The translations under genes were made by a program, and so were the position numbers. Source: Gemmatimonadota bacterium (lineage in GTDB: Bacteria; Gemmatimonadota; Gemmatimonadetes; Palauibacterales; KS3-K002). From it: a stretch of 54,325 nt of DNA. Positions 32,933 through 51,009 of the stretch are shown piece by piece (position 1 is the stretch's first letter; each line of letters opens with the position of its first letter). The notes under the pieces were generated by a model. That model did not search any database. It saw only the letters and a list, made by a program, of their open reading frames with translations, and was not told the origin of the DNA. The stretch lies in the NCBI GenBank assembly GCA_039586795.1, contig JBDHJS010000022.1, positions 1-54,325 on the forward strand, in the 5' to 3' direction.

Positions 32933-33010
32933 ACATGATAGGGTGGATGATCACACGCCGGATTACCTGATCCTCTACCTGACTCTTACATGATAACCGT
33001 TTCGCAATTT
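32933..33010 (+). promoter_or_regulatory. Five-box direct-repeat promoter P1
   Basis: Boxes CATGA 32934, GATGA 32946, CCTGA 32966, CCTGA 32978, CATGA 32989 (spacing 12/20/12/11); weak -10-like CAATTT at 33005, 16 nt after the last box start. Confidence 0.7.
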
Positions 33011-33124
33011 GGATTTGCGGGTTCACCGGGAAACGAATAACACAACCAATAACCGTTCAGGCTGGATCTCAAAGGGCGCTCGGCGCGTTTTGAGGTTGAA
33101 CGTTAAGGAAGCTGGAGGAGTGAA

Positions 33125-33319
33125 ATGAACGCTAACGAGAGAGTGACAGTTGCTGCGATCTATCAGTCAGATCTCGATCGTCATCTGTTCGCGCCCTCGT
33201 TAAGGCCGATCAGGACTCGCCGGCGTAATCACGATCCGCTGGCCGATCGCGTGCGCGACTGGTTCATGGCGGGCTGGGCCCGTTGGAAAGAGCTGGCAGA
33301 GGCTGCGTCGTTCAGCTAA
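33125..33319 (+). CDS. 64-aa hypothetical microprotein downstream of P1
   Basis: GGAGGAG RBS before ATG; Trp-rich amphipathic C-terminus DWFMAGWARWKEL; short hairpin after the stop. Confidence 0.65.
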   Translation: MNANERVTVAAIYQSDLDRHLFAPSLRPIRTRRRNHDPLADRVRDWFMAGWARWKELAEAASFS

Positions 33320-33456
33320 GAGCTGGAACGATTCCCAGCCTCTGCAGCACCCTCTTCCCTTATTCCACCAGCCCATCCATTCCATAGCCCCATCCCACGG
33401 CCGCAATCGCGGCAGCCGTCGCTTGCCATCGCTGGGAGACCCATTCAACTTGAGTC

Positions 33457-35898
33457 GTGCGACCGACCGAGATTATCACCTTGGGACGAACCGCCGTCCT
33501 GCATGACGGTGTCGAGCTCCCCTCCCTTTCCTCACAGCGACGGCAACTCGCGCTGCTGGTCTTCCTCGCCGTTGAAGGGCCTGTGAGTCGCGGGCGCCTG
33601 ATTTCGACCTTCTGGCCCGACCGGGATGCGGAAAAGGCTCGTCATTCCCTAGCTCAAGCCCTGTACGCGTTGCGTCAGGAGCTGGGCGAGCGATCGGTGA
33701 TCCAGGAAGGCGACGTCCTGTCTGTCGGCCCTGAGATATCGATCGACGCGGCGGCGATGAGGAATGCCATTATCGCTGAAGACTGGCAGCGTGTCGTCGA
33801 GTTCTATGATGGGCCGTTCCTCGCAGGGTTTTCGTTGTCGGGGTCGCCCGAATTCGAGGAGTGGGCCGCGGGTCATCGGGCGCGATATGCCTCTGACGCG
33901 CGTCGGGCTTTTCGCCAGGCGATCGCGCGCTACAGATCGTCCGGCGACACGAAGGCTGCGGCGGCGCTGGCGAGCCGCTGGAGCGATATCGAGCCCTCGG
34001 GTGCGGCGGACGAACCGGAAGCCGAGCCCGAGATCCCCGAGGCGGTCCCCGTCGGATGGAACGCCGTAATCGACAGCCTCAAGACCCGTCACTATTTCAG
34101 GATCCTCCTCCTCTATCTCGGGGCCGCCTGGCTGGCCGTGCAGTTCTTCGACATCCTGGTCGATCGTAACGTCCTGGCGCCAGGTTTCTTCCCTCTTGTC
34201 CTGTACATCGTTGGGCTCGGCTTCCCCGTTGCGCTGCTTCTCGCCTGGCTGTTCGAGCGAAAGGCCCAACGGGCACAGGGAGCGACAGCTCCGCTGCGAA
34301 TCAAGGCGGCGGAGATCGGTTACGCTATCGGCGCCGTAGCGCTTATCGCGCTGATCCTCGTCTCGGTACTCGATCGCCTTCGCCCACAAGATGAGCGGGA
34401 TGTATTCCCGGCAACGCGCATCGCCGTGCTCTACTTCGACGATCACAGCGACGGCGACACGCTCTCCTATCTGGCCGAGGCGCTCACCGAGCATCTGACT
34501 CACGAGCTGGCTCAGATCTCCGCTCTCGACGTGCTCCCGCGTAACGCCGTAAAGCCGTACCGAGAGACGGGAACGCCAAGCGACGTGATCGCTGGCGAAC
34601 TCGGCGTCGGCACGCTGGTCGAAGGCAGCGTGCTGGGTTTCGCGGACAGCGTGCGGATCAGCGTCCAGCTCATCGACGCTCGGAACATGAGTCACCTGAC
34701 CAGCGCCGTGATCGCTGGCGCCGGCGGCGATCCCTTCGCGCTGCTCGACGACGTCGGTTCAGAGATCGCTCGGCTGCTCCGTACGGAGCTTGGGATGGAG
34801 ATCCAGCTCCGCGAATGGCGAGCCGGCACGGAGAGCACGGCGGCTTGGGAGAGAGTCAAGCGGGCCAACGCGATCCTCGCCGACTACGAGCCGCTGGTGA
34901 TGAGCGGCGATACGGCAGCGGCCGGGAGGACGCTGGATCTGGCGGACACGCTGTTGGCTCGCGCCGAGGCGGCGGACCCGAATTGGCCCGAGCCGATCGT
35001 CCAGCGCGGTTGGATCGCCGCTTCGCGGGCGGCACTCTTCTCAACGCCGGCCGAAGACAATCAATCGCACTGGTTTCAGGTGGGCATCGAACACGCCGAG
35101 CGGGCGCTGGCGATCGATTCAGAAAACGCCCGGGCGTTGGAACTCCGGGGCATCCTCCGCTCTCGGATCGCGCTCGAGGCGGAATCCGAGGGCGAGTCCA
35201 ACCGCTTGCTGACGGAAGCTGAAGACGACCTACGCAGGGCAACCGATCTGAACATCGGGCTGGCCCGCGCCTGGAGTCGACTCAGTCGTATCCAGGCAGA
35301 CCGCGGCCAATTCGCCGAGGCCAAGCTCGCCGCGCAACGCGCGTTCGAAGCGGACGCCTTCCTCCGAGACGCTCCGGTCGTGCTCGCTCGACTTTGCGAA
35401 ATGTCGCTCCAACTCCAAGACTGGAACGAGGTCACTCGCTGGTGCGAGCTGGGCAGACAGCGTTTCCCAGATGACGAGTTCTTCGCGGCGGTAGAGCTAT
35501 CGGCGCTGGCCGGACCCGTTGGCCCCGAACCCGACGTGGACTTGGCTTGGGACCTTGTCGAACAGACGCTCCGGCTCAGCCCGCCCGGCGACCGTGACGA
35601 CTACCTTCCGGCCCTTCACATGCAGGCGGCGGCGGTGATCGCCCGCGCCGGGCTGGCCGACAGTGCCGTGGCGGTTATCGATGGGGCCCGGGCCGCCGAT
35701 CCTCGCGACGACCCGGAATTGGACTACCAGGAGGCTAACGCGCGCTTGATCATGGGGGACGTCGATGAAGCGCTTCGCCTACTCGCGGAGTTCCTCGAGG
35801 CGGAACCCGAGTATGCTCAATTCCTGGAAAGCGACTGGTGGTTCGATCGACTGCACGACGATCCCCGCTTCCTGACTCTGGTCGACGGGCCGAACTAG
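33457..35898 (+). CDS. Membrane-anchored SARP/BTAD-type regulator 1 (wHTH, shortened BTAD, 3 TM, TolB-N-like domain, TPR)
   Basis: ALLVFLAVEG..SR..L...FWPDRD.EKARHSLAQALYALR; YDGPFLAGF...EFEEW; TM module; IAVLYFDD; TPR-like C-terminus. Confidence 0.85.
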   Translation: MRPTEIITLGRTAVLHDGVELPSLSSQRRQLALLVFLAVEGPVSRGRLISTFWPDRDAEKARHSLAQALYALRQELGERSVIQEGDVLSVGPEISIDAAAMRNAIIAEDWQRVVEFYDGPFLAGFSLSGSPEFEEWAAGHRARYASDARRAFRQAIARYRSSGDTKAAAALASRWSDIEPSGAADEPEAEPEIPEAVPVGWNAVIDSLKTRHYFRILLLYLGAAWLAVQFFDILVDRNVLAPGFFPLVLYIVGLGFPVALLLAWLFERKAQRAQGATAPLRIKAAEIGYAIGAVALIALILVSVLDRLRPQDERDVFPATRIAVLYFDDHSDGDTLSYLAEALTEHLTHELAQISALDVLPRNAVKPYRETGTPSDVIAGELGVGTLVEGSVLGFADSVRISVQLIDARNMSHLTSAVIAGAGGDPFALLDDVGSEIARLLRTELGMEIQLREWRAGTESTAAWERVKRANAILADYEPLVMSGDTAAAGRTLDLADTLLARAEAADPNWPEPIVQRGWIAASRAALFSTPAEDNQSHWFQVGIEHAERALAIDSENARALELRGILRSRIALEAESEGESNRLLTEAEDDLRRATDLNIGLARAWSRLSRIQADRGQFAEAKLAAQRAFEADAFLRDAPVVLARLCEMSLQLQDWNEVTRWCELGRQRFPDDEFFAAVELSALAGPVGPEPDVDLAWDLVEQTLRLSPPGDRDDYLPALHMQAAAVIARAGLADSAVAVIDGARAADPRDDPELDYQEANARLIMGDVDEALRLLAEFLEAEPEYAQFLESDWWFDRLHDDPRFLTLVDGPN

Positions 35899-36305
35899 CG
35901 CTCGCCTTCCTCCTTCTTGACCACGACCCGTGGATCCAACGTGTCCGCCGCCGCCCCGACCCAGACGATGATATCGTACTTGTAGGTGCCAGCGCTGGCG
36001 TCCGCCCGGATCGTCGTGGTCGCCGCCGCGCCACCGCTCCCGCTCAACTGGTTCACGGGCGCCGGACTGCCCAGCGTCGGATCCTCGAGATCGATGACGA
36101 TCGAGTCGGCCGTCGGGTGCTGCCAGCTCAACGTGTCGTTGACGTACACGGTGACGGGATCGGGGAGCACGTTGATGGCCGTGGCAACGCCGCCCGTTAT
36201 CCCGACCACCACGTGCCGGGGCGTGCTCGCCGTGGGATGAGGGTAGCAGTAGCCCAGGATCAGCCCGATGATCAACGCGACCAGCGCAATCAGGAACGCC
36301 TTCAT
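35895..36305 (-). CDS. Secreted or membrane-anchored small beta-sandwich protein (cupredoxin-like pattern)
   Basis: Hydrophobic N-terminus, PDPVTV...LSW, GTYKYDIIV...LDPRVVV; GAGGAGG RBS. Confidence 0.7.
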   Translation of the reverse strand: MKAFLIALVALIIGLILGYCYPHPTASTPRHVVVGITGGVATAINVLPDPVTVYVNDTLSWQHPTADSIVIDLEDPTLGSPAPVNQLSGSGGAAATTTIRADASAGTYKYDIIVWVGAAADTLDPRVVVKKEEGER

Positions 36306-36322
36306 GCGACCTCCTCATCTAA

Positions 36323-36430
36323 TCGAGTACCAGTACGATCACGAGAACGATAGGGACTACGAGTACGAGTAGCATGGCTCGTACTCGCACTCGTACGGGT
36401 GATCGTGCTCATTATCGTACTCGTACTCGA
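36323..36430. repeat. GAGTAC/GTACTC hexamer-repeat hairpin
   Basis: tcgagtaccagtacgatcacgagaacgat ... atcgtgctcattatcgtactcgtactcga; inner tacgagtacgagt / ctcgtactcgcactcgta. Confidence 0.75.
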
Positions 36431-36601
36431 CGAAGTCCAATAGGTCCGGGGAGCGAACCCAAGCTTCCGGGCCCGCTCCCCGCTGCGGAGCGCAGACTCA
36501 TGCGGATCGCATTGGAGGGTCGTAGGCACGATGTTCCACGTCACCCACCGTGCCGGTGGGAATCTCAGCTGCGCCCCCGGATTCGCCCGCCAGGGCGCAA
36601 C

Positions 36602-36733
36602 TCAATCGATCCATGCCAGTACGGAGTGCGCGAACAGGCCCACTGCCGCGGCGTAGATCAATACCGCCACTACGATCTTCGCTAAGTCAGCCGCCCCGAA
36701 CCTCGTCACGTTCGGCCGCATCGTTCTCATCAT
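36602..36733 (-). CDS. 43-aa single-TM microprotein (below the ORF-track cutoff)
   Basis: Hand translation MMRTMRPNVTRFGAADLAKIVVAVLIYAAAVGLFAHSVLAWID*; GGGAG/AGGAG RBS; GC hairpin after the stop; similar to the 50702-50857 peptide. Confidence 0.65.
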   Translation of the reverse strand: MMRTMRPNVTRFGAADLAKIVVAVLIYAAAVGLFAHSVLAWID

Positions 36734-36917
36734 CTCCTACTCCCGAGGCCACGCAGAAGAAGTCCAGCCCTGCCAGGTAACAGACCCACTTCTGAACGAC
36801 CCCTCCGGTCCCGCCGAACAACGGCGCCACAGCCACGATGATCGTCAGAGTCACCAATCCGATAACTCCCCACCGTCTCTTCTCGCTTGCTCCTTCGACC
36901 GTCGCGGTATCCATCAT
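36687..36917 (-). CDS. 76-aa membrane microprotein downstream of P2
   Basis: GGAGGAGG RBS; KRRW followed by a TM helix, then C-x8-C (CYLAGLDFFC). Confidence 0.65.
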   Translation of the reverse strand: MMDTATVEGASEKRRWGVIGLVTLTIIVAVAPLFGGTGGVVQKWVCYLAGLDFFCVASGVGDDENDAAERDEVRGG

Positions 36918-36972: not shown

Positions 36973-37048
36973 AGTATAGCCGACCGCCCTCAGTCAGCTC
37001 TCAGTCACGAATCAGTCCGGCGACGAGATTATCATCCGGCGATCATCC
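36973..37048 (-). promoter_or_regulatory. Five-box direct-repeat promoter P2
   Basis: Minus-strand boxes GATGA 37047, GATGA 37036, ACTGA 37016, ACTGA 37005, ACTGA 36994 (11/20/11/11); TATACT at 36978-36973, 16 nt after the last box start. Confidence 0.8.
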
Positions 37049-37288
37049 GATCTGGCCAAAGCCTGTAAGTGTTTATGTAACAACCGGTTGGAAATACATG
37101 GCGTGCTACTTCACAAATGCTTGCGAGCCTTTCACCACCATTCAATATTCAACTGCCTTCACAATGCGCACCGACGGTTTCCCAGCCGCCGGCACGCTCA
37201 GCACGACCGTTCGAGCCTGGAGCGCGGACATGAGTCGCCCGCCAAGCCCCTTCCGGAAGCACCCATGGAGCCAGCCGGAGTCCGGGTC

Positions 37289-40200
37289 GTGATCGAGCTG
37301 ACAACGTTCGGTCGGGCGACCATCCGGCGCGATGGCGAAGAGCTCCGCAGCATTGCACGGCATAAGCAGAAGTTCGCGTTCCTCACCTACCTGGCGGTGG
37401 AAGGCCAGGCCAGCCGCGATCGCCTGCTGGCCGTATTCTGGCCCGAGCGTGAGGAGGAGCGGGCTCGCCACTCGCTTTCTCAGATCCTGTACGCGCTAAA
37501 GCGCGAGCTGGGAGAAGAGTGTCTCCGCGTGCAGCCAGACAGTGTCTCCGTCGACAATGAAGCGTGCACGATCGACGCGGCGAAGCTAGAGCGCGCCGCG
37601 GAAAGTGAAGACTGGGAAGGCGTCATCCAGCTTTACGCAGGTCCGTTCCTCGATCAGTTTGCGCTACCCGGTGCGGCAGAGTTCGAGGACTGGCAGTCGA
37701 CGACCCGGGCGCGGTTGACCCGCCTGGCGCGGCGTGGCTTCCCCAAGGTGATCGAAGAACGCGTGAGCCGCGGCGACATGTCCGGCGCCGTAGCCACGGC
37801 CTGGCGCTGGGCCACACTGGAACCACTCGAGGACGAGGCCCAGCACGCGCTGATCCAGGTGCTCGCCCAATCCGGCGACCGTAGCGGAGCCCTCGAGCAC
37901 TATGAGACCTACCGCGAGCGCCTCGCCCGTGAGCTGGAAGTAGAGCCGCTGGATGACACGATCGCCCTGGTCGAGGCGATTCGGGCTGGCGACATCGCCG
38001 CGTATCGACCGCTGGCCGAGCGACCATCGACGGTTTCCGAACCGGAAGCCGCTTACGCAGACGTCGCCGGAACGACAGCTCGGCCGGAGCCGGACCTACC
38101 GTTCCTCGATAAGCTAAAGCAACGCCGCATCTTCCACGTCGGCGCCGCTTACCTGGCCGTTGCCTGGCTCGCGTTTCAATTCACCAACACGCTCGCCGAC
38201 CGCGGTCTGCTGGCCGAATGGGTCTTCCCCCTGGTCCTAGCGCTGTTGACCACCGGCCTTCCCGTTACACTGCTCCTCGCCTGGGCGTCCGAGGCGGTGC
38301 CGGTTCGCGGCACCCAAGACGCCGACACAGAGGGCGTGCTCGGCAGGCTGCGAAAGCTACGCGTCGGTCCCGTGCTGGGCGTGCTGGCCGTTCTCGTCGT
38401 CGTGCTGGCGGGTGCCATCCTCGCCGTCACGCGCTGGCTACCGCTCCAACGCCTGGAGCCGAGTCGCGTTATGGTTTTCCCCCTGACGGTAACGCCGGAA
38501 GGAAACGAGACGACCGGCGAGCGGGCGGCCTCGTGGATCGGCTATACGCTGGAGCAGACCGGCCGTTTCAAGTGGGTGGACGGCTGGTGGGAACTCGACG
38601 AGCCACAGCGCGCCGGCCTCGAAAATGTGAGCCCGGTCTCCGCCAGGGAGACAGCGCGGGCCGAGCGCGCCGCGTTCTACATCCGCGGTCGCATCTCGAT
38701 GACCAACGATTCGGTCCACGTGTTCGCCGAACTACACGACGTCCGTCGCAGAACGATCGTCCAGCGATTCAACCTTGCGAGCCCCGTCGATGAAACCTGG
38801 ATACCTCGGGTCAGCGAGCGCGTGGCTTGGGGACTGTACTCCGCTCTGGCGCCGGATGACCCTGAGATCGGCCACACCGCCGCATCGGACACGCCGCAGG
38901 CGGCGCTGGAGTTCCTGGAAGGCGAGCTGGCGTATCGGGACGCGCGCTTCTCGGATGCGCTTCAACATTATCAGGCGGCCGTCGCGCTCGACTCCAGTTT
39001 CGTGCTGGCCGCCCTGAAGGGCACGATGGTCGCCGGCTGGAATCACGATGCCGAAGTCGCCGGCGGCTTCCTCGATCTGATCGACCAGCACGCCGCCGCC
39101 CTCGAACCCAGCCGCGCGCAATTGGCCCGCGGCTTGGCCGCCTACTGGTCGGGGCGCGCCGACGACGCGGTGGAACATCTCGAAACCGCCGTGCAGATCG
39201 ACCCCAGCTTCGTCGAAGCCTGGGCCCAGCTCGGCGAGACCTATACGCACTTTCTGCCCGCGCGGCGCGCCATCGACTCTCTCGCCCGGGTTTCTTTCGT
39301 CACGGTTCGGCAACTCGAGCCGGAGTTCCGAGTCGTGCTCTACCACCTGACGGAATTCGCGATTCGTGACGGTGCGGCGGATAGCGCCAGCGTCTACTTC
39401 GATGATTTCCGGCAGACCGAGCCCGACTCTAGCTTCATTCAGAGCAACGAGCTCAAGCTCCAATGCGTTCAACAGACACCGCAGATGATCGCTTGGCGGG
39501 CGGAAGTGGAGCGCAGTCCGGCGGCCGTCTACTCGACTGGCCAGTCCCTTGCCAAAGCGGGCGCTCACACGGGATGCGCTCGCCATGCTTGGAGGGCGCT
39601 TTTGAGCCTGTCCGGCGACGCGTACCTGAACTACAGATTCGGCGCGGTCGGGAACCTGCAGAGCTTGCTCGTGGCCGAGGGTCGCTTCGATGAGCTAGAT
39701 CAGCTTTGGCCGGAGGAGTTCGCCGACTATTCCGGCGATTTCTACCTGTTGGACGCCAACGCCGGCGCTCCCGTCCAGAGGCAAGCCACAATGTGGGCCG
39801 ACCGCATCCGATCGGACCTGCCGCTGGGCTCGGTATCCGACTATGAGCTCTGGATGCTCGGCGTCTGGGAGTTCAATCAGGGCCGCACTGAATGGGTAAG
39901 ACTGATCGCCGACTCGCTGGCAGCACGTGCCGATTCAACGGGCGGCAGACTGACGCGCATGCTCGGAGACGTCATGGAAGCTCGGGCCGTGCTGGCGGAA
40001 GGCGACTCGGCCAACGCTCTCGATCTACTGAGCGTGTTGACGCCGACCAAGACCCCCACCGACGCCTGGTACCCGTGGGAGACGCTCGCCGCGGAGAAGA
40101 TGCTGCTCGCTGGTTTGCTCTACGCGACCGGCGACTACACCGGCGCCGTTGGCGTCGCGAGCACGCTGGATGCACCCGCCCGCCCGGCCTACGACCTCAT

Positions 40201-40333
40201 CTATTTGCCCAACAGCCTCGTTATTCGGGCCCGCGCGGCCCGTGCGTTGGGTGACGCTGAACTGGAACAGCGTTGCCGAGATCGGCTCACGAATCTGGGA
40301 CGGATCGACCTGGTCGGCGCACTCGATCGGTAG
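37289..40333 (+). CDS. Membrane-anchored SARP/BTAD-type regulator 2 (wHTH, BTAD, 3 TM, TolB-N-like domain, TPR)
   Basis: MIELTTFGRATI..., LTYLAVEG..SRDRLLAVFWPE, EPLEDEAQHALI...GDRSGALEHY...ELEVEP; LKQRRIFHVGAAYLAVAW TM module; TPRs. Start GTG 37289 or ATG 37265. Confidence 0.88.
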   Translation: MIELTTFGRATIRRDGEELRSIARHKQKFAFLTYLAVEGQASRDRLLAVFWPEREEERARHSLSQILYALKRELGEECLRVQPDSVSVDNEACTIDAAKLERAAESEDWEGVIQLYAGPFLDQFALPGAAEFEDWQSTTRARLTRLARRGFPKVIEERVSRGDMSGAVATAWRWATLEPLEDEAQHALIQVLAQSGDRSGALEHYETYRERLARELEVEPLDDTIALVEAIRAGDIAAYRPLAERPSTVSEPEAAYADVAGTTARPEPDLPFLDKLKQRRIFHVGAAYLAVAWLAFQFTNTLADRGLLAEWVFPLVLALLTTGLPVTLLLAWASEAVPVRGTQDADTEGVLGRLRKLRVGPVLGVLAVLVVVLAGAILAVTRWLPLQRLEPSRVMVFPLTVTPEGNETTGERAASWIGYTLEQTGRFKWVDGWWELDEPQRAGLENVSPVSARETARAERAAFYIRGRISMTNDSVHVFAELHDVRRRTIVQRFNLASPVDETWIPRVSERVAWGLYSALAPDDPEIGHTAASDTPQAALEFLEGELAYRDARFSDALQHYQAAVALDSSFVLAALKGTMVAGWNHDAEVAGGFLDLIDQHAAALEPSRAQLARGLAAYWSGRADDAVEHLETAVQIDPSFVEAWAQLGETYTHFLPARRAIDSLARVSFVTVRQLEPEFRVVLYHLTEFAIRDGAADSASVYFDDFRQTEPDSSFIQSNELKLQCVQQTPQMIAWRAEVERSPAAVYSTGQSLAKAGAHTGCARHAWRALLSLSGDAYLNYRFGAVGNLQSLLVAEGRFDELDQLWPEEFADYSGDFYLLDANAGAPVQRQATMWADRIRSDLPLGSVSDYELWMLGVWEFNQGRTEWVRLIADSLAARADSTGGRLTRMLGDVMEARAVLAEGDSANALDLLSVLTPTKTPTDAWYPWETLAAEKMLLAGLLYATGDYTGAVGVASTLDAPARPAYDLIYLPNSLVIRARAARALGDAELEQRCRDRLTNLGRIDLVGALDR

Positions 40334-40732: not shown

Positions 40733-40739
40733 TAAGGGT

Positions 40740-42131
40740 CTACTGCCGCGCCCGATCCGGCTCGCTAGGTAGGTCCTGCACCAGCTCGGCGACCAGGCGC
40801 TCGATCAGATCGAACATTCCGTCACGCGGACCGCGGGCGTCGGCACGCGCCAGCTCGGCGCCCGTCTGCGCATCCACCAACTCGGCGACGAGTCGGATCT
40901 CATCGCCGCTGCGATGGATATCGCCGACCACGAACGCGCTGGCACCCAGGTCGCCGGCCAGCGCACGCATCGCTGCGGCGTCCTGCATCGCCGAGGCCGC
41001 ATCCTGTCCCTCCAGCGCCTGGAGGACCTGCAGGTGACCGACCGTTGTGATCGAGGCTTCGCCTTCCAGATCAACGGACAGTAGCTGTGCCACACCCTCC
41101 GGGAGACCCTCGGAGTCGGCGCCGACGCCGTGTGGCTGGAATGGCATGACCGCCACCCGCATGCCCAGGGTCGGGACCGTGGACCTTGCGGCGAGATTCG
41201 CATCCTCCGCCGGTCCGCTGGTCGGCCACTGCCAGATCGCCACCATCGTCACGACCACCAGAGCGACCGCCGCCACTACCCAACCGCGCTTGCTCAACCC
41301 GAGGCTCGGAGCCGCCGATTCGGCTTCCACCTTTGCCGGCGCCGTCTGCTCGACCTGGGGCTGTGGCTCCCGCTCGACCTCGTTCTCATCCGGCTCTAGT
41401 TCCGGCTCGCTCACCTGAGCGCCCGGGCTCGGCTCGGCCCGGATCCGCGCGACCAGCTCTCGGGTGTGCTCCAGCGGCTCGACCTCCAGCTCGTTCTCCA
41501 GCAGCACCCGGTACACGTCATACTGCCGCAGCGCCGCCAACCGATCGCCCTTCAGGTAGAGGCACTCGATAAGCAGGTGCTGGGCCTCGTCGTCCAGCGA
41601 ATCCGCCTCGATCAGGCGCCGACAGTAGCCCACCGCCGCGTCGTGATCGGCCGCCGCCCTGGCATCCATCGCCATCTTGAGCGCCGCTTTCCTGAACTCG
41701 CGTCGCAGGCCGGCACGCTGCCGGTCCGCCCAGTGATCGAACTCAGGCTCCCCGAACGCCAGGTCGATCAGGAACGGCCCCGAGTACATCTCAACGGCGC
41801 CCTTGAGGTCGCCCGACTGGATTCGCGCCTCGAATTCCTCCACATCCAGCCACACGTCGCGGCCGAAATCGACCGCGTCCTCGACGCTCTCCAGATCGAG
41901 CTGCGGAGTGACCTTCCGGAGGGTGTACAGCAGCTGGTTCAGCGCCCGGCGCGCCCGCTTCTCGTCCCGATCCGGCCACAGCACGCCGAGGATCTCCTCG
42001 CGCCGGTCCGGACCCGGCTCCCGAGCCATATACACAATCAACGCGATGGACCGGGGCCAGGCGGCCTCGCCCGTTAGCGTCTCCCCGTCGACGGTAATCG
42101 ACGTCCGCCCTAGTGTCCGAATCTCTATCAT
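40740..42131 (-). CDS. Membrane-anchored SARP/BTAD-type regulator 3 (wHTH, BTAD, 1 TM, TolB-N/FlgO-like domain, no TPR)
   Basis: MIEIRTLGRTSI..., LWPDRDEKRARRALNQLLYTLR, YSGPFL, LDDEAQHLLI...GDRLAALRQY...ELEVEP; one TM; VAVMPF domain. Confidence 0.88.
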   Translation of the reverse strand: MIEIRTLGRTSITVDGETLTGEAAWPRSIALIVYMAREPGPDRREEILGVLWPDRDEKRARRALNQLLYTLRKVTPQLDLESVEDAVDFGRDVWLDVEEFEARIQSGDLKGAVEMYSGPFLIDLAFGEPEFDHWADRQRAGLRREFRKAALKMAMDARAAADHDAAVGYCRRLIEADSLDDEAQHLLIECLYLKGDRLAALRQYDVYRVLLENELEVEPLEHTRELVARIRAEPSPGAQVSEPELEPDENEVEREPQPQVEQTAPAKVEAESAAPSLGLSKRGWVVAAVALVVVTMVAIWQWPTSGPAEDANLAARSTVPTLGMRVAVMPFQPHGVGADSEGLPEGVAQLLSVDLEGEASITTVGHLQVLQALEGQDAASAMQDAAAMRALAGDLGASAFVVGDIHRSGDEIRLVAELVDAQTGAELARADARGPRDGMFDLIERLVAELVQDLPSEPDRARQ

Positions 42132-42210
42132 TACAGGGTCCTGGTGGGGTCTCGGGTTGCCCGCCCCCTGCAAATTGTCGTTCTGGGCGGTAATCGACAA
42201 GACGGCAGGC

Positions 42211-42347
42211 TTGGGGTGGACGGTAACCGGTGGTAGACGGTGGACGGTGGACTGTAGACAGTGGAACGCTGGTCAGTAAGTCCGGATACGCCACTCAACC
42301 GTCCACCGTCTAGCGTCCACCTACCGTCCACCTACCGTCCACCCCAA
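42211..42347. repeat. 137-bp palindromic element with 15-bp terminal inverted repeats and internal heptamers (MITE/REP-like)
   Basis: TTGGGGTGGACGGTA ... TACCGTCCACCCCAA; internal GACGGTG/CACCGTC-type units. Confidence 0.75.
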
Positions 42348-42425
42348 CATGACCGCCCACATGACACCTCCCCCAGCCCGCCTGATAGCCACCTGACCGC
42401 CCGCATGATCGGCCTGTCCTATTAT
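42347..42425 (+). promoter_or_regulatory. Five-box direct-repeat promoter P3
   Basis: CATGA 42348, CATGA 42360, CCTGA 42381, CCTGA 42392, CATGA 42404 (12/21/11/12); TATTAT at 42420, 16 nt after the last box start. Confidence 0.8.
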
Positions 42426-42428
42426 GGA

Positions 42429-42670
42429 ACGTCCGGTTGGGCAGCCGATTCGGACGTGAGGATTCAAGACGAAGTCTCTTAGGAAGTACGTAGTCGTAGT
42501 TGGCTTGAGACAGCAGTTTTCCCTCACTGGAGGCTTGTCCGCACGCTCGCCCTTCCGGGTCCCCGGTCGCTTTGGGGACTTCCTCCTCTGCCCATTTTGC
42601 ACCCGCAAGGATGCGGCGAGTCGGGCGGACGAGCCTCCAAACCCCCACCCTGGGCTTCAGGGCTCAGGCA
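42429..42670 (+). ncRNA. Candidate structured ncRNA 1 (unknown family; ends approximate)
   Basis: Follows P3; hairpin ACGTCCG/CGGACGT; domain closed by GTGAGG/CCTCAC; stem GGAGGCTTGTCCGC/GCGGACGAGCCTCC (42529-42638) enclosing GTCCCC/GGGGAC and a GCAA-tetraloop hairpin. U-G wobble and GNRA loop favour the + strand; no credible ORF. Confidence 0.5.
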
Positions 42671-42751
42671 GAAGTTGGTGAGGAGTTAGGATTGAAAGGG
42701 AAAAGTAGGGAATACGACAGCAAAGCCCGGCCAGAATGCCCGAGTCTCCTT

Positions 42752-42830
42752 ACATGATAGGGTACATGATAGGGTACGCCCGCAGCATGATCGCCACATG
42801 ACCGACTACATGATAGCCCCACCCTATGTT
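42752..42830 (+). promoter_or_regulatory. Five-box direct-repeat promoter P4
   Basis: CATGA at 42753, 42765, 42786, 42797, 42809 (12/21/11/12, identical to P3 with a 405-nt offset); TATGTT at 42825, 16 nt after the last box start. Confidence 0.8.
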
Positions 42831-42836
42831 TCCCCT

Positions 42837-42991
42837 CGACTTGACCCTGGAGTGAGCCCTTAGGGCTCGGAATCTTCCGGAGGCTCGTTCAGGAGTTCTG
42901 CTTCCAAAAGTCTGTTTAAAGACTACCTCAGCTGTCCCACCTGCCCGCTGTGGAAGCAAACGGAACTCGAGAACGAGCCTCCGTTCTTTTT
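42837..42991 (+). ncRNA. Candidate structured ncRNA 2 (related to ncRNA 1; ends approximate)
   Basis: Follows P4; GAGCCC/GGGCTC hairpin; stem CGGAGGCTCGTTC/GAACGAGCCTCCG (42878-42983) with inner GAGTTC/GAACTC and TGCTTCCA/TGGAAGCA helices; followed by TTCTTTTT. Confidence 0.5.
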
Positions 42992-42999
42992 GAACCTCA

Positions 43000-43038
43000 C
43001 CCCCCACTCCCTACCCCCTACCCCTTACCCGCTACCGC
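43000..43038. repeat. Degenerate CCCTACC heptamer tandem repeat
   Basis: cccccactccctaccccctaccccttacccgctaccgc next to the M14 gene stop. Confidence 0.6.
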
Positions 43039-43040
43039 TT

Positions 43041-45806
43041 TCACCGCACCGTCGGCCCGAAGATAATCCCATTCAAGAACAGCCTATCCAAAGACGGCCA
43101 AAGCAGCCTAAACGTCGGGTCGTCCGCAAACATGATCACCCGGCCCCCGCCGATCGGCTCATCGATCATCCAGGCCGTATCCTTCAGGAACTTCACCGTG
43201 TTGTCGGACCAGATGTGGCCGGTGATGTGCAGGTTGTCGCCGACGAAGGCGACGGGGTTGGCGCCCTCTTTCGACGGATGGTAGAAATCGCTGCCTGAAA
43301 CGAGGACCGGCAGCACATCGGTCTCGTAGCCGAACGTCATGGGGCTGGTCAAATCGAGGGAGGCCCGCATGATCGCGCCCGGGACGCGGATCGGCTCATC
43401 CTCGCCGCCAGCCGTCATCACGCCGCCGGCGTACGCCGCCTGCGGCAACCCGACATCGCGACTGCCGCCGTCTTCGCCGTCATCTTCTTCTGCTCCAACA
43501 CGGCGCGCGCTTGTGAACTCCGCATCGACGAAGTAGCCGGCCGCGTTGCCCAGCGCGATCACCACGCCGCCGCCCTGGATCCATTCCTTCAGCCGCTCGC
43601 CGTTGCCGAAGGCTCGACGATAGCCCCAACCGGACGGCAGCACGATCACGTTGAAGTCATCGAGCGAGTTGGCCAGGGTCTCCAAACGCACCGGCGTGTA
43701 GGGCACAGCGTATTCTCGGTCCAACGTGTACCAGGTGGCGCCGAACGCCGTCGCGCTGACACCATCGCCAGCGGCCAGGGCGACCTTCGGCCGTTCGAGG
43801 GTCACCACCGGATTGGACCCGATCCCTGTCGGCCCCTCCTCGTAGTAGCCGGTGTGCACCGCATCGACCGGGACGCCGAACTTCCGGGCGAGGACGTCGA
43901 TGCGATCGTGAAGGGTGTCCGGGTTTCGATTCACACGGAGCAGCAGCGTGCCTCGCGCGTACGTCGCACCTCCAGCCCGCATCTGCTGCGTCGCGGCGAC
44001 AACCTTGAAGCCTTCCTTGAACAGGGCAAAGGCGAGCCGCGCCGATGCGTTGCGATCGTAGCGGAAGACGTAAGCCGTGTTCGCCCGACCGCCCCGCACT
44101 CCGCCGTCGACTCCGCCGCGGAGCGCTTCAGGCAGCGATCCCATGTCACGGGCGCCCAGGTAGGCCGGCGGCCGCCATGCTTCGTCGCGCTCGTTGAATT
44201 CGACTTCAAGCGGTTGGGCAGCGACACGACCGGCGCTCTCCAACCAGTAGGCCTCGACGCCATATGAAAGAGGGAGACTCCACGCCGTGACATCGTAGAA
44301 CTGTGGCCATTCCTTCGGCACCTTAGCGCCGCGCAGCGCGTTCCGCGCTCGCCGCTGGTTCTGGAGCTCCAGGAATTCGGGCTCCAGACCCGCTTCCGGC
44401 GCCATCTTCGATTCGAGCAGGCGCGCCTGAGGCTGCGCCATGTCGATGATGTAGCTGCCCGCCGGGAACTCACGGCGCGACGAGGCTCCGTTGACGTAGT
44501 CGTGAGCGTTGCCGGAGCTGAACGACTCGGTGGCGACGCTCACCTCGATGTCATCACGAAGCAGGATCTCCGCCAGCTGCGCCGCCCGCTCGGGGTCCGT
44601 GCCCGGCACGACGACGAAGCGCTTCCACGCCTTCGACGCCGCGAATTCGTTCATCCCGGAACGGAAGAAATCGTAGTAGTCGTTGAGCGCGGCCTCTCGG
44701 TTCTCACCCAACGTGCTCAGCGTGGCCAGCGATGCCGTGAAGTGTTTGGCGATTCCGTCCGTGAACGTGAGCACCGTGCCGTCGTCACGGACCCAGGCGT
44801 AGCCACGGTAACCGCCGCCATCCGTCTCGTAGGTCATCCCGATGGCGCCGTTCAGCGCTGGCCAGCTGTCCCAGTAACCCGGGTAGTGAAGATCGAAGAC
44901 ATCGCGGACGAAGTAGTTCCAGCTGTAGCGATCGAACGCCGCGCCGTTGGCCCGCCCATACATGTCCGTCCAGCGTTGCACCCAGTCGCTAGGCAGGCTG
45001 GGGTTGAGTGGCAGAACCGGCGGCGGCATGAAGTACTGGGTCGTCTGACCGTGATGGTCGACAAAGACTTGCGGGCTCCAGTCGTGATGCGCCTGCACGA
45101 TCGCCTTCGTCTCGCGCTGACTCAGGTTCAGCGCATCCCGGTTCATGTCAATCTGGTAGTGGTTGTTGTTGGTGCTCATGCCCCAGGGCGCCGAGTGCTC
45201 GAGTGCCGCATGCGCCGAGTCGCCTACCGCGAACGCGTTGTACCACTCCACGTGCCGCTCGCGGCTCTCCGGGTTGTGGGAGGGGTTGATGACCGAGATG
45301 ACGTTCTCGAGGATCGCCAGCGTATAGGCGTCTTCGCCGGCCGCCAGTTGATAGGCTACCTGCATCGCCGTCTCACCCGCTGCCGTCTCGTTGCCGTCAT
45401 TGCCGTAGTTCATCCAGCCGATGGGCGGCGTCGTCCGCGCGATCTCCGCCGCTTGTGCGGCGCTGGTGGCACGCGGGTCCCGCAGGCTACGGACGGCCGC
45501 ACGGATCTCATCCAGTCGCGCCATGTTCTCCGGCGAACTGATGATCACGAGCCTGAGCGTTCGACCTTCCACCGACTTCCCGTAGTCCACGATCCGGACA
45601 CGGTCGGGCGCCGCCGCGGCAATCGCCTCCAGGACCCGCTCCAAGTTCCCGTGGTTCGTGTGGAACTCACCCGGCTCGTAGCCGAGGATCGAGGACGGTC
45701 GCGGCACGTTCTCCCGGTAGGGGCCGTGCTCGTAGAACGAGAACTCCTGGGCGCGAGCGATCGCCGGCGCCAACAGCATGACGAGAACCAGGCTGAGTCT
45801 TCGCAT
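43041..45806 (-). CDS. Secreted M14-family zinc carboxypeptidase-like protein with atypical metal motif
   Basis: Signal peptide, YGKSVEGR.L, NDGNE in place of the usual HGNE, DMNRD, MTYET; C-terminal GATase-like domain. Confidence 0.85.
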   Translation of the reverse strand: MRRLSLVLVMLLAPAIARAQEFSFYEHGPYRENVPRPSSILGYEPGEFHTNHGNLERVLEAIAAAAPDRVRIVDYGKSVEGRTLRLVIISSPENMARLDEIRAAVRSLRDPRATSAAQAAEIARTTPPIGWMNYGNDGNETAAGETAMQVAYQLAAGEDAYTLAILENVISVINPSHNPESRERHVEWYNAFAVGDSAHAALEHSAPWGMSTNNNHYQIDMNRDALNLSQRETKAIVQAHHDWSPQVFVDHHGQTTQYFMPPPVLPLNPSLPSDWVQRWTDMYGRANGAAFDRYSWNYFVRDVFDLHYPGYWDSWPALNGAIGMTYETDGGGYRGYAWVRDDGTVLTFTDGIAKHFTASLATLSTLGENREAALNDYYDFFRSGMNEFAASKAWKRFVVVPGTDPERAAQLAEILLRDDIEVSVATESFSSGNAHDYVNGASSRREFPAGSYIIDMAQPQARLLESKMAPEAGLEPEFLELQNQRRARNALRGAKVPKEWPQFYDVTAWSLPLSYGVEAYWLESAGRVAAQPLEVEFNERDEAWRPPAYLGARDMGSLPEALRGGVDGGVRGGRANTAYVFRYDRNASARLAFALFKEGFKVVAATQQMRAGGATYARGTLLLRVNRNPDTLHDRIDVLARKFGVPVDAVHTGYYEEGPTGIGSNPVVTLERPKVALAAGDGVSATAFGATWYTLDREYAVPYTPVRLETLANSLDDFNVIVLPSGWGYRRAFGNGERLKEWIQGGGVVIALGNAAGYFVDAEFTSARRVGAEEDDGEDGGSRDVGLPQAAYAGGVMTAGGEDEPIRVPGAIMRASLDLTSPMTFGYETDVLPVLVSGSDFYHPSKEGANPVAFVGDNLHITGHIWSDNTVKFLKDTAWMIDEPIGGGRVIMFADDPTFRLLWPSLDRLFLNGIIFGPTVR

Positions 45807-46936: not shown

Positions 46937-47240
46937 GTATCCTCCCACGTCGAGTGGTCAAGATGGCGGTCATTGCCCACGGGGCCGCGCCCCGGCTGAC
47001 GGCGTATAACAGGCTCGCACGATAATAAGGAGTCTCTTTTTTGGGAACCCTCTCTTGACCGCCGCTTGTCCGCTAGGCGCCAGACTCACCGCGTGTGCTG
47101 AGCGTACGCTTCCGTGTCGGTGGGACACGCCGGCGACCTGGTGCCGGCGACCCCGGTCCAGTAACGGCGCCGTTGGCCGCGGCCCGGCTCCGGCATCGCG
47201 TGTGCATTGTCGATAGTCAGCATTAGCAGGAGGGGCTCCC

Positions 47241-48023: not shown

Positions 48024-48254
48024 CGCCACGCTCGACGAAGCGGCTCTGCAACCTTTTGCCCCCGTAACTCGTCTTAAAGGGCGAGCCCCGCACATGAGTA
48101 TCCTGGCCAGCCAGTCCAACTTGCTCCTCGTGCAGGCCAGGTCGCTTGGAGACATCGCGCTGTAAATGAACTGCCGATCCGTACCACCGAACGGTGAGAG
48201 CGTCGCGGCGTCGCGTCGCTCTGTCCTGCTATTTTGTTTCCCCAAAGGAGACGC

Positions 48255-50597
48255 ATGATGCGACCGTACGTATCCAGCCTGATCGCACTTTCTTGCCTGC
48301 TCGTCTTTCCACCTCTTGTCAGCGCGCAGAGCTACGGCAGCGCCCTGGAGCGCCCGGTGGCGAACCCGGTGGTCGCTTCGCAGGGCTTCCAGCGTGCCGT
48401 GGAGCGTGAGACGCGCACTACAAACGGTATTCCGGGCCCGCGCTACTGGCAGCAGTCGGCCGAATACACGATCACGGCGCGCCTCGACGTGGACGAGAAG
48501 CGACTCGAAGGCACGACACGCATCCTCTACCGCAACGAATCGCCCGACAGCCTGCGACGTCTGGTCGTGCAGCTGATCCAGAACTTCCATCGCGACGACG
48601 CGCCGCGTATCCGCTCAGCCGAGATCACCGGCGGCTACTCGTTGTCTCGCGTTGTAGTGGCAGGCGAGATCCTCGAGGAGCTACAGCCGCTACGTGGTGC
48701 CGGGTGGGCGATGAGCCAGACCAACCTGCTGATCAATCCGCCGGCGCCGGTGGCGCCGGGCAGCTCGGTCGTGATCGAGATCGACTGGAGCTTCCTCATC
48801 CCCGCGGTGGGCGCCGGCGGCCGCATGGGCTGGAACGACGACAACTTCTTCTACCTCGCCTACTGGTATCCGCAGATGGCGGTGTACGACGACGTGGTCG
48901 GCTGGCACACCGACCCGTTCCTCGGCATGTCCGAGTTCTACTCCGGGTTCGCGGAGTACGACGTCACGCTCGACGTGCCGCAGGGTTGGTTGGTCCAGGG
49001 CACCGGCGAGCTGCAGAACGAGGAGGAGGTGCTGGCGGAGCACATCATCGAGCGGCTGCGCCAGGCCGAGGCGAGCGACGAGGTCGTACGCGTGATCACT
49101 GAAGGAGACCTGCTGTCGGGATACACCCGCATCGCTGATGACGGGCGGCTGCGCTGGCGCTTCACCGCCGACTCGGTGCGCGATGCGGCCTACTCCGTCA
49201 CCCGCGAATCGCTGTGGGACGTCGTTCGCGCCGATGTGGGCGACCGGGACGGTGACGGCCGGCCGGAGTACTCCCGCGCCGAGGCGATCTTCCGCCCCGA
49301 GCATCAGCTCTGGCACGAGGGCGCCCGCTACGCCCAGCACAGTCTGTGGTTCCACTCGCGCCAGATGGGGTTGCCGTATCCCTACAGCCACGGCACGGCC
49401 GTGGAGGGCGCGGGCATCATCGGCGGTGGCATGGAGCACCCGATGATGACGATCATTGGCGGCTATGATAACGGAAATCAATACGGGCTGTACGGAGTGA
49501 TCTCACACGAGCTGGCGCACAACTGGTTGCCGATGATCGTTTCCATCGACGAGCGGCGGCGCGCCTGGATGGACGAGGGTACGACCAACTTCAACACGGC
49601 CGATGCCTTTGCGGACTTCTTCCCCGACCTGCCCACTGGGTCCGGCAATTTCCAGGGTTACACCGGCCTGGCCCGCACCGGACACGAGGGCGCGTTGATG
49701 CGTTTCTCGGACCGGCTGGACTCGCCGGGTCACTACGGCGTGCATGGCTACAGCAAGCCCGCGTCGCTGCTCATCAGTTTGAGAAACCTGCTCGGCGCGG
49801 AAACGTTCAACCGTGCCTACCACGGTTACGTCAACACGTGGGCCTACAAGCTCCCGAAGCCCTGGGACTTCTTCAACTACTTCAACGCCGCCACCGGTGA
49901 GGACCTCGACTGGTTCTGGCAGACCTGGTACTACGAGACCTGGACTCTGGATCAGACGATCGAGAGTGTGACCGCCGGACGCAACGGAACCGAGATCGTG
50001 GTCCGCGACAACGGCGATGCGCCAATGCCGACGCGTCTCACCATCACGCTGGCGGATGGCGAAACGCTGCACCGGGAGATCCCCGTCAAACACTGGCTGA
50101 GTGGAACGCGAGAAGCCGTGGTTATGGTGCCGGCCGGTAACGACGTGACCCGGGTCGAGATCGATCCCGATTTTCCGGACGTGATGGGCAAGAACAACTT
50201 CTGGGACCGCCAGACGGATGATCTTCCTTCATCGTGGCCGCTTGCCGTACGCAGCGACCTGGTCCGCCGCAGCAACTGGGCCACCGATGCCGGCTTTCGA
50301 CCGGAGGGCGAGCTGTTAAGCGGCTCGGCCGCACACAGAACTTCAGACACCCAGGCCATCACACTCGAGGGCGGAGTGGAGTACGCCATCCTCGCCGTCT
50401 GTGGTGACGACTGTTCGGATATCGATCTAACGATCACATCGCCATCCGACTCGACGCTGGCCACCGACACAACGCAGGACGATTGGCCGCGTATCACGTT
50501 CACGGCACCCGTCACCGGTCAGTACGACCTGACGCTCACCATGTATACGTGCCGGTCGCAAACCTGCGCCTGGGGCGGACAGATCTTCCGCCGCTAA
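48255..50597 (+). CDS. M1 family aminopeptidase with extra C-terminal domain
   Basis: GGMEHP, HELAH...WMDEG zinc motif, YSKP; signal peptide; AAGGAG RBS. Confidence 0.9.
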   Translation: MMRPYVSSLIALSCLLVFPPLVSAQSYGSALERPVANPVVASQGFQRAVERETRTTNGIPGPRYWQQSAEYTITARLDVDEKRLEGTTRILYRNESPDSLRRLVVQLIQNFHRDDAPRIRSAEITGGYSLSRVVVAGEILEELQPLRGAGWAMSQTNLLINPPAPVAPGSSVVIEIDWSFLIPAVGAGGRMGWNDDNFFYLAYWYPQMAVYDDVVGWHTDPFLGMSEFYSGFAEYDVTLDVPQGWLVQGTGELQNEEEVLAEHIIERLRQAEASDEVVRVITEGDLLSGYTRIADDGRLRWRFTADSVRDAAYSVTRESLWDVVRADVGDRDGDGRPEYSRAEAIFRPEHQLWHEGARYAQHSLWFHSRQMGLPYPYSHGTAVEGAGIIGGGMEHPMMTIIGGYDNGNQYGLYGVISHELAHNWLPMIVSIDERRRAWMDEGTTNFNTADAFADFFPDLPTGSGNFQGYTGLARTGHEGALMRFSDRLDSPGHYGVHGYSKPASLLISLRNLLGAETFNRAYHGYVNTWAYKLPKPWDFFNYFNAATGEDLDWFWQTWYYETWTLDQTIESVTAGRNGTEIVVRDNGDAPMPTRLTITLADGETLHREIPVKHWLSGTREAVVMVPAGNDVTRVEIDPDFPDVMGKNNFWDRQTDDLPSSWPLAVRSDLVRRSNWATDAGFRPEGELLSGSAAHRTSDTQAITLEGGVEYAILAVCGDDCSDIDLTITSPSDSTLATDTTQDDWPRITFTAPVTGQYDLTLTMYTCRSQTCAWGGQIFRR

Positions 50598-50630
50598 CGA
50601 AGCGGGCGCCTGGTCAATCGCTCAATAAAC

Positions 50631-50659
50631 AGCTCGGCCGCCGATCTGGCGGCCGAGCT
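50631..50659. terminator. GC hairpin between convergent genes (possible bidirectional terminator)
   Basis: AGCTCGGCCGCC-gatct-GGCGGCCGAGCT with A-rich 5' flank and short T run on the 3' side. Confidence 0.55.
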
Positions 50660-50701
50660 TTGCTGGTTGGGGGGTTGGGGCGAAGATCTGCTGGCGAGTC
50701 G

Positions 50702-50857
50702 TTACGGCGCGCCGGCCGCGATCAGCGAGAGGGAAAAGTAGAGAAACCAGCCGGCTAGGCCGGCGTAGATCGTCAACATGGCGAGCATCTTCGCCGCGTT
50801 CATCCCCGGGTCTGCATGCTCTCGAGCGGATTCGTTGTCTACCGTCAGCGTCTTCAT
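50702..50857 (-). CDS. 51-aa single-TM microprotein (below the ORF-track cutoff)
   Basis: Hand translation MKTLTVDNESAREHADPGMNAAKMLAMLTIYAGLAGWFLYFSLSLIAAGAP*; GGGAGG RBS; directly downstream of P5. Confidence 0.7.
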   Translation of the reverse strand: MKTLTVDNESAREHADPGMNAAKMLAMLTIYAGLAGWFLYFSLSLIAAGAP

Positions 50858-50932
50858 CTCTTGTCCCTCCCGGCTGTCGTCCCTACGTCAGGGGGCGCCT
50901 GGGCAAGCGCCTACGAGCAACAGCATGGGCCC

Positions 50933-51009
50933 ATCCTACAGACCGCCTATCACGAAGACGATCACGTGCCGATCATGTCGCGGCGGCTCGGATCATGTAG
51001 CGATCATTC
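50933..51009 (-). promoter_or_regulatory. Five-box direct-repeat promoter P5
   Basis: Minus-strand boxes AATGA 51008, CATGA 50997, CATGA 50977, CGTGA 50966, CGTGA 50954, all followed by T (11/20/11/12); TAGGAT at 50938-50933, 16 nt after the last box start. Confidence 0.8.

Follow-up and report, generated by a model that had tools for sequence, protein, structure and literature searches.

Phased direct-repeat arrays beside membrane-anchored wHTH-BTAD proteins in Gemmatimonadota: probable SARP-type control of small proteins and RNAs

What reads five arrays of TGA-centered direct repeats that lie on a single contig of a gemmatimonadotal genome, and what do these arrays control? The window analyzed here is the whole of contig JBDHJS010000022.1 (54,325 nt, C17) of assembly GCA_039586795.1, a genome of 4.68 Mb in 107 contigs (G000) assigned to Gemmatimonadota, Palauibacterales, KS3-K002; members of this family are uncultured sediment bacteria. 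The arrays, labeled P1 to P5, accompany the genes of three regulators, A, B and C, which combine a winged helix-turn-helix (wHTH) head with a complete or partial BTAD domain and predicted membrane segments. The five arrays are probably SARP-type, activator-dependent promoters, likely read by these membrane-anchored wHTH-BTAD proteins. Relatives' genomes are labeled G002 onward.

Five phased arrays with a fixed hexamer offset

The original prediction placed five arrays of two plus three TGA boxes, each followed by a -10-like hexamer, on this contig. Scanning both strands with the five-box pattern TGA-N8/9-TGA-N17/18-TGA-N8/9-TGA-N8/9-TGA returned exactly five matches in the window, at the predicted places:

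P1, 32933-33010, forward strand: TGA starts at 32936, 32948, 32968, 32980 and 32991; hexamer CAATTT at 33005-33010
P2, 36973-37048, reverse strand: TGA starts at 37045, 37034, 37014, 37003 and 36992; hexamer TATACT at 36978-36973
P3, 42347-42425, forward strand: TGA starts at 42350, 42362, 42383, 42394 and 42406; hexamer TATTAT at 42420-42425
P4, 42752-42830, forward strand: TGA starts at 42755, 42767, 42788, 42799 and 42811; hexamer TATGTT at 42825-42830
P5, 50933-51009, reverse strand: TGA starts at 51006, 50995, 50975, 50964 and 50952; hexamer TAGGAT at 50938-50933

All five follow the claimed spacing of 11/12, 20/21, 11/12 and 11/12 nt (12-20-12-11 in P1, 11-20-11-11 in P2, 12-21-11-12 in both P3 and P4, and 11-20-11-12 in P5). 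TGA is invariant in 25 of 25 boxes. Counted from the T of the last TGA, the hexamer begins at +14 in every array. The boxes of P2 are of two types, two GATGA followed by three CTGA. A -35 hexamer is absent from the usual distance in these promoters.

The arrays are real and lie far beyond chance. None of 300 dinucleotide-preserving shuffles of the window contained a five-box match, and a genome-wide scan (4.68 Mb) found seven, five of them on this contig. A strict promoter pattern (three TGA 11-12 nt apart, N11, TAnnnT), with its reversed reading as control, matched five sites in the genome against none for the control. Four of these are P2 to P5; P1 escapes solely because its hexamer, CAATTT, starts with C rather than fitting TAnnnT. 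Four of the five strict sites lie less than 9 kb from A, B or C.

Conservation of the arrays as probable promoters

P4 precedes a small RNA (sRNA) gene that recurs throughout much of the family:

sRNA behind P4, 42873-42992, forward strand: about 120 nt; invariant core of 38 nt, T-run terminator at its end

A covariance model of this RNA (R1), searched in 30 family and 114 sister-family genomes, matched 23 of the former and none of the latter, scoring 118.6 bits on the window copy, and a DNA query covering 42340-43000 found matches in 20 of 24 family genomes, nearly all on the segment 3' of P4. The gene is single-copy, the sole extra being a weak second match in G010, beside its C orthologue. 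An alignment of 12 copies contains the invariant 38-nt core and three stems with 30 predicted pairs, 7 of which show compensatory changes, and the window copy folds at -66.9 kcal/mol (z -4.6). Rfam returned no match in the window at gathering thresholds and one weak, chance-level match within 42300-43100 (E 4); a tRNA scan found none. By these comparative criteria, the RNA behind P4 is a conserved structured sRNA that is absent from Rfam.

All 24 genomes with the sRNA (own included), from nine genera, have a strict three-box site with TAnnnT upstream of it at a distance of at most 420 nt, and the orientation of this site toward the sRNA is constant. Across the 72 proximal boxes of these promoters, the logo reads A-C-(C/A)-T-G-A-(T/C)-(C/A)-G, with C at -2 in 71 and TGA in 72, and the hexamer reads TAnn(T/A)T (24/24). 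The 9-bp box extends from -3 to +5 around TGA, and with the hexamer at +14 this leaves 8 bp between the two in all 24 promoters. The number of boxes is less constant than had been proposed: the 2+3 geometry, described as rigid, holds for all five window arrays but for only 19 of the 24 sRNA promoters, the remainder being 2+4 (2/24) or of other form (3/24). Those of genus g4 are 3+2+3 arrays that end in 2+3. In relatives, too, inter-box DNA is divergent and the phase is kept. The distance from hexamer to sRNA is 26-29, 48-65 or 192-239 nt depending on the genus and is conserved within genera; in the genus-g4 loci that were read, the longer gap contains a small open reading frame (ORF).

Arrays of the P2 type (two GATGA, then CTGA) were found in 8 of 41 genomes, one in each, and the reversed control gave no match. 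Their spacing of 11, 20, 11 and 11 nt and a TATnnT hexamer are kept in G002, G014, G011 and G016, and in the first three of these the array is divergent from a B orthologue. The array shares a contig with the C orthologue in six of the eight genomes; in the remaining two, it lies beside a C-terminal C-like fragment (G016) or on the contig of a B-like gene (G011). The predicted promoter role of the arrays draws on this conservation in relatives, of the sRNA, of small ORFs (described below) and of the fixed hexamer offset, and on that evidence they are very likely promoters.

Predicted membrane-anchored regulators of the locus

The genome encodes about 17-19 wHTH-BTAD genes, three of which lie among the arrays:

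Regulator A, 33457-35898, forward strand: 813 aa; wHTH, partial BTAD, three hydrophobic segments and a TPR-like periplasmic part
Regulator B, 37268-40333, forward strand: wHTH, BTAD (PF03704, E 1.5e-16), two or three membrane segments and TPR; homology runs from 37268
Regulator C, 40740-42200, reverse strand: 486 aa; wHTH, BTAD (PF03704, E 7.6e-15), one membrane helix and a TolB_N-like periplasmic domain

P1 leads into the ORF of a 64-aa protein (p64) and, beyond it, A. P2 and B diverge, as do P3 and C; P4 comes after P3. P5 is set 8 kb apart, between M1 and M28 peptidase genes. Structurally, the three proteins share one plan, as far as hydropathy, the sole basis for their membrane segments and topology, predicts it: all hydrophobic segments follow the BTAD region (residues 216-310 in A, a single segment at 302-327 in C), and a periplasmic-type domain lies beyond. 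The first 250 residues of C align along their entire length with the SARP domain of AfsR (8hvr_I, residues 9-237 of C, E 8.5e-4); the TolB_N match of C (E 9.7e-4) is below cut-off. Over 94 aa, A is 37% identical to the wHTH of C (E 2e-13). In Pfam, A alone of the three has a Trans_reg_C match (E 0.029), below cut-off, and its BTAD, which looks truncated, has no match at E 1. B likewise aligns with the wHTH of C.

C orthologues, 56-72% identical along the full length, were found in 20 of 24 family genomes vs none of 16 sister-family genomes, and proteins related to C come from Gemmatimonadota or Gemmatimonadales metagenome-assembled genomes. Between genera, the wHTH of C keeps 82-89% identity. 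In 16 of 24 loci it is encoded on the strand opposite the sRNA, less than 1.5 kb from it, and in four more genomes C and the sRNA are 4-11 kb apart on one contig. The sRNA and C also have the same phyletic range, with genera g5, g7 and g12 lacking both. B orthologues are present in 9 of 15 family genomes searched and adjoin C orthologues in G002, G005, G012, G014 and G015; the orthologue searches of relatives covered B and C. The original prediction assigned the arrays to all three adjacent proteins. This breadth is retained for C, which is kept in most of the family, but not for B, which occurs only in some genera. Judged by its conservation, C is the core regulator of the locus. The upstream regions of the other ~14 wHTH-BTAD genes in the own genome carry no TGA arrays.

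Link between promoter class and wHTH-BTAD genes across the phylum

The promoters had been expected to co-occur with wHTH-BTAD genes in related genomes, and a phylum-wide survey bears this out. Among 300 other Gemmatimonadota genomes, none of this family, the pattern TGAY-N7/8-TGAY-N7/8-TGAY-N10-TAnnnT matched 50 sites in 40 genomes vs 2 reversed-control matches, and an off-phase control with 12-13 nt spacing matched in 1 of 301 genomes. Genomic neighborhoods of up to 5 kb per side of all 50 sites were searched with the heads of A, B and C. At least 18 of the 50 sites have a wHTH-BTAD gene nearby, a lower bound in view of the many stretches that end at contig ends, and at least 15 stand head to head with a divergent wHTH-BTAD gene whose aligned start is 33-206 nt away. 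By a rough estimate (19 genes x 210 nt / 9.35 Mb strand positions), chance adjacency of this kind is expected at about 0.02 of 50 sites. In seven of the 15 divergent proteins, a hydrophobic segment follows closely on the BTAD region, within residues 256-360, and the genes downstream of these promoters mostly encode lipoprotein-like proteins of 150-290 aa. Gene neighborhood thus links wHTH-BTAD genes with membrane segments to such promoters, in the family and across the phylum.

Who reads the boxes

Most likely, the arrays are read by the membrane-anchored, SARP-like proteins that the locus encodes, C being their conserved core. Several C protomers, joined by the paralogues B and A where present, would bind head to tail along one face of the DNA. 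Like AfsR, the promoter-proximal protomers would recruit RNA polymerase and stand in for the -35 contact. Activity would be set by the periplasmic TolB_N-like and TPR domains, and an outside signal could thus reach the promoter through one membrane-bound protein. The outputs of the locus would be the conserved sRNA, a second structured RNA, soluble p64 and the small membrane proteins p76, p43 and p51; any feedback from these products to the sensors is a guess, as are the targets of the sRNA.

Several observations weigh against the assignment of the boxes to these proteins. A comparison of recognition helices did not set A, B and C apart from other paralogues. P2-type arrays stand without an adjacent B in G007, G021 and G009, which indicates that this array type goes with the locus and not with B. 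In the survey, 32 of the 50 sites had no wHTH-BTAD gene in the fetched stretch, many stretches being cut by contig ends. G006 (genus g5, 91% complete) contains 13 box-triplet matches, yet its best C relative is 34% identical, no wHTH-BTAD gene lies near its arrays, and no arrays lie near that relative. One G006 array (G006:C64:11053-11155; L073:2556-2655) consists of ten ACCTGAYCGNC boxes with an 11-nt period, one 9-nt step and TATTCT at +14. This genome has neither the sRNA nor a C orthologue, and no convincing ORF with a ribosome-binding site was found 3' of the ten-box array; another of its arrays precedes a lipoprotein gene. Either the C locus is missing from the G006 assembly or the boxes are read by another protein there. 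Also contrary are ten arrays on other contigs of the own genome, each made of 4-6 contiguous boxes of the form ACATGAT(A/C)G at a period of 11-12 nt:

C11:41328-41367, contiguous array
C22:32503-32544, contiguous array
C24:38121-38161, contiguous array
C34:6855-6896, contiguous array
C37:4340-4401, contiguous array
C54:5262-5302, contiguous array
C64:27300-27340, contiguous array
C68:92148-92198, contiguous array
C74:1006-1055, contiguous array
C84:4973-5014, contiguous array

None has a hexamer at the fixed offset, and their neighbors are unrelated genes (FeoAB, FGGY kinase, rhodanese, thiolase, MacB/FtsX, histidine kinase), so that a more global reader is possible. Arrays like these recur in relatives.

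The boxes could instead be read by another direct-repeat binder, for example an OmpR/PhoB-type response regulator or a different wHTH protein encoded elsewhere, with the A/B/C locus as its target. The box arrays at ten other loci beside unrelated genes and the occurrence of arrays in G006 without a C orthologue are consistent with this, and phased 11-bp direct repeats are common to the OmpR superfamily (PMC11301090 compares AfsR with GlnR and PhoP). However, none of 13 large ORFs scanned in 29208-54114 matches a response-regulator family, the fixed-hexamer promoter class is nearly confined to the A/B/C locus in its own genome, and 15 of the 50 such promoters in other families are head to head with a wHTH-BTAD gene. 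We consider another binder unlikely.

RNA polymerase itself might also recognize the boxes, as an intrinsic promoter element that needs no dedicated activator, by way of an alternative sigma factor or of UP-like contacts of the alpha-subunit C-terminal domain. Many boxes of the contiguous arrays do read TGATAGCT(A/T), an extended -10 form (TGnTAnnnT), and on contigs C24 and C84 the downstream ORF has its first start codon in the ATG of the last box. Nevertheless, a sigma-type signal would not consist of five to ten in-phase copies with one position skipped, the final hexamer does not share the phase of the boxes and has no TG before it, and the class is rare (5 sites in 4.7 Mb), which makes this explanation very improbable. 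Even less credit is due to the idea that the arrays are not promoters but a short dispersed repeat, or sites for a process other than transcription. It would account for the contiguous arrays of C11 and C37, which are near-identical over ~45 nt beside unrelated proteins, but not for a fixed TAnnnT offset, an orientation to the sRNA that is constant in 24 of 24 genomes, an RNA distance kept within genera, or inter-box sequence that diverges as the phase stays.

Under the preferred reading by the membrane-anchored proteins of the locus, a bolder arrangement can be imagined, in which the C, B and A sensors sit together on phased modules (2+3 to 3+2+3) and sum periplasmic signals at one promoter, with microproteins and sRNA feeding back on the sensors and on envelope/peptidase genes. 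This mixed-sensor assembly is distinctly doubtful; if true, it would be a signaling design described for neither SARPs nor ToxR-type receptors.

Relation to known systems

SARPs are soluble cytoplasmic activators that occur alone ('small') or fused to NB-ARC/TPR domains ('large'). To our knowledge, they are known almost only as soluble antibiotic-gene switches of actinomycetes, and what is known of membrane-bound wHTH regulators comes mainly from ToxR and CadC. If the proposed reading is true, the locus would equip a transmembrane sensor with a DNA-reading head of the SARP type, in a phylum nearly without regulatory genetics.

The likeness to SARPs, with AfsR at the afsS promoter (PDB 8hvr/8k60) as reference, begins with the N-terminal OmpR-type wHTH of C (aligned with 8hvr_I), A and B, and extends in B and C only to a BTAD directly after the wHTH. 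At the DNA, the arrays are likewise direct repeats of 11-bp period on one face, with 11/12 nt within and 20/21 nt between modules. According to PMC11301090, AfsR binds side by side on one face, its downstream site lying 8 bp upstream of the -10 and its upstream site overlapping the -35. Here, too, the proximal repeat lies 8 bp before the predicted -10, replacing a usable -35, in 24 of 24 sRNA promoters and five of five window arrays. PimR protects three heptamers with 4-bp spacers (PMC3367932), a further likeness in its use of three repeats. Unlike the soluble SARPs, A, B and C have predicted membrane helices (three, two to three and one, respectively) and a periplasmic TolB_N-like or TPR part. 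The arrays comprise five to eight boxes in modules split by one skipped turn, the targets are an sRNA and small proteins rather than antibiotic genes, the host belongs to the Gemmatimonadota, and binding, established for SARPs, is here inferred.

At the membrane, the resemblance is to ToxR-like receptors. ToxR is described as binding in tandem, several molecules one turn apart, with the DNA tethered to the membrane (PMC10629549), and CadC as the model transmembrane wHTH activator, uniting cytoplasmic wHTH, membrane anchor and periplasmic sensor in one protein (PMC5430869). A survey finds transmembrane transcription regulators widespread (PMC10269533); the terms BTAD, SARP and Gemmatimon do not occur in its main text. 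The predicted topology of A, B and C, with a cytoplasmic N-terminal wHTH, an anchor and a periplasmic C-terminal domain in one protein, agrees with these accounts. In contrast to ToxR and CadC, which have a linker and no BTAD, B and C carry a BTAD between wHTH and membrane helix, and the sites of ToxR and CadC are A/T-rich, read by DNA shape and not placed 8 bp from a -10. Full-text literature searches returned no paper that describes promoters, regulators or sRNAs of this kind in Gemmatimonadota, or BTAD proteins anchored in the membrane.

Regulators with a divergently encoded sRNA are known from OxyR-OxyS and GcvA-GcvB, and MgrB is a small membrane protein that feeds back on PhoQ. The present locus resembles these in its back-to-back regulator and sRNA genes and in small membrane proteins as candidate outputs of envelope sensing; it differs in that the regulators of those systems are of other families and that feedback is here a guess. 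The system is likely SARP-like at the DNA and ToxR-type at the membrane, both parts being of known kinds and their joining new. Because it departs both from the solubility of SARPs and from the absence of a BTAD in ToxR-type receptors, it is better described as a union of known kinds than as categorically new. The locus offers testable material: the box consensus, phase and 8-bp rule that make up its promoter grammar, an sRNA found across the family but not in Rfam, and a conserved microprotein family. It also suggests that many Gemmatimonadota genes of the wHTH-BTAD-transmembrane type may be local one-component switches with predictable target promoters, which would aid the annotation of uncultured sediment bacteria.

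Structured RNAs behind P3 and P4

P3 also faces a structured RNA:

P3 transcript (ends predicted), 42432-42700, forward strand: structured RNA with a long closing stem, GGAGGCUUGUCCGC...GCGGACGAGCCUCC, and a CUUCCUCCUC stretch

Its minimum free energy is -117 kcal/mol (z -2.3), it is partly conserved in G002, and model R1 does not match it. By eye, it shares a stem, GGAGGCU...AGCCUCC, and the CUUCCUCCUC stretch with an RNA behind a five-box array in G015 (L079, G015:C1, ~117280-117400). RNAs of the P3 type may form a second sRNA family under the same promoter type.

The invariant hairpin of the P4 sRNA (positions 54-75) has perfect complements of 17, 15, 14, 13 and 13 nt in its own genome, at C46:~2635 (-), C20:~143999 (-), C91:100291 (+), C82:50157 (+) and C39:9748 (+), respectively. 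The 17-mer complement falls in the coding part of a gene for a TolB_N-like domain protein; by estimate, chance would give ~0.05 complements of this length. An anti-sigma-like zinc-finger gene has the 15-mer across its ribosome-binding region, and a DsrE-like gene has the 14-mer in its 5' leader. These complements may be sRNA targets and serve as leads only.

Small-protein genes behind P1, P2 and P5

The remaining arrays precede short ORFs:

p64, 33125-33319, forward strand: 64-aa ORF behind P1; soluble, with no hydrophobic segment predicted
p76, 36687-36917, reverse strand: 76-aa ORF behind P2; one predicted membrane segment and a GGAGG ribosome-binding site
p43, 36602-36733, reverse strand: second small membrane protein of the P2 unit; one predicted segment
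136-aa ORF, 35895-36305, reverse strand: N-terminal hydrophobic segment; third-codon-position GC content (GC3) 0.89
p51, 50702-50857, reverse strand: 51-aa small protein behind P5; one predicted membrane segment and the C-terminus AAGAP
Terminator-like hairpin, 50631-50659, reverse strand: closes the P5 unit; 12 pairs, 10 of them G-C, then a T-rich tail

The p64 family shares the motif (D/E)(L/M/I)YQ(T/S)DL(E/D)RHLFAP and has several copies per genome. Homologues were found in five of five genomes searched and at three further loci behind arrays (G011, G014, G005); arrays lie upstream of p64 homologues in G002, G005, G007, G009, G011, G012 and G014. The homologues of G002, G007 and G009 are placed at the C/B locus, and the G012 copy lies elsewhere in its genome. 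The copy at the G015 locus has just two upstream boxes, off the +14 rule. A second p64 paralogue (L168, G009:C15:62835; L169, G015; L170, G007:C108:10364) is preceded by a different element with a conserved CTTGACT-N4-CCTGACC, that is, two boxes 11 nt apart without a hexamer at +14.

Pfam gave no match for p64, p76, p43 or p51, and an Atlas search with p64 returned only unnamed clusters at a score of 0.82, under the useful level. Relatives of p76 comprise a 67-aa homologue behind a P2-type array in G002 and a look-alike of its N-terminal 30 aa in G011. G002 also encodes a 42-aa p43 homologue, and both of its genes have GGAGG-type ribosome-binding sites behind that array. The 136-aa ORF (36305-35895) is possibly the end of the P2 unit, into which P2 transcripts may read through; read-through from P1 may likewise reach the 813-aa gene at 33457. 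A p51 query found no homologue in five genomes, a weak test for a 51-aa membrane peptide, and in G014 a 43-aa ORF behind a P2-type array has the same C-terminal ending as p51.

The original prediction limited the targets to ORFs of 76 aa or less and structured RNAs. This describes P1 to P5, but an array on contig C55, with 4+3 boxes and TAGCTT at +13, lies ahead of a gene for a 175-aa Big_2 lipoprotein, so the outputs appear to extend beyond microproteins.

Neighboring genes and further repeats

Four peptidase genes surround the regulon (30493-32835, 43041-45806, 48234-50597 and 51079-52494), encoding two M14 carboxypeptidases, one M1 and one M28 peptidase, and in G024 an M14-like C-terminus flanks the sRNA promoter, as seen by eye. 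A link of the regulon to peptide sensing or to the envelope is possible.

Between C and P3 (42211-42347), four copies of ACCGTCCACC, mostly 11 nt apart, face three to four copies of GGTGGACGG in an imperfect palindrome of ~50 nt; the GGTGGACGG palindrome was not found at this position in 17 related loci checked. Elsewhere in the genome (C64:~28200-28290), GATGACA and GTGATGACG repeats lie upstream of a soluble AfsR-like gene (BTAD plus AAA_16, L015:3996-6041). Beside the six-box array of contig C37, the region 4418-6684 (L012:3079-5345) contains a 225-aa ORF with a membrane module like those of A and B, followed by a TPR protein. Without a wHTH-BTAD head, this 225-aa ORF looks like a 'headless' sensor paralogue.

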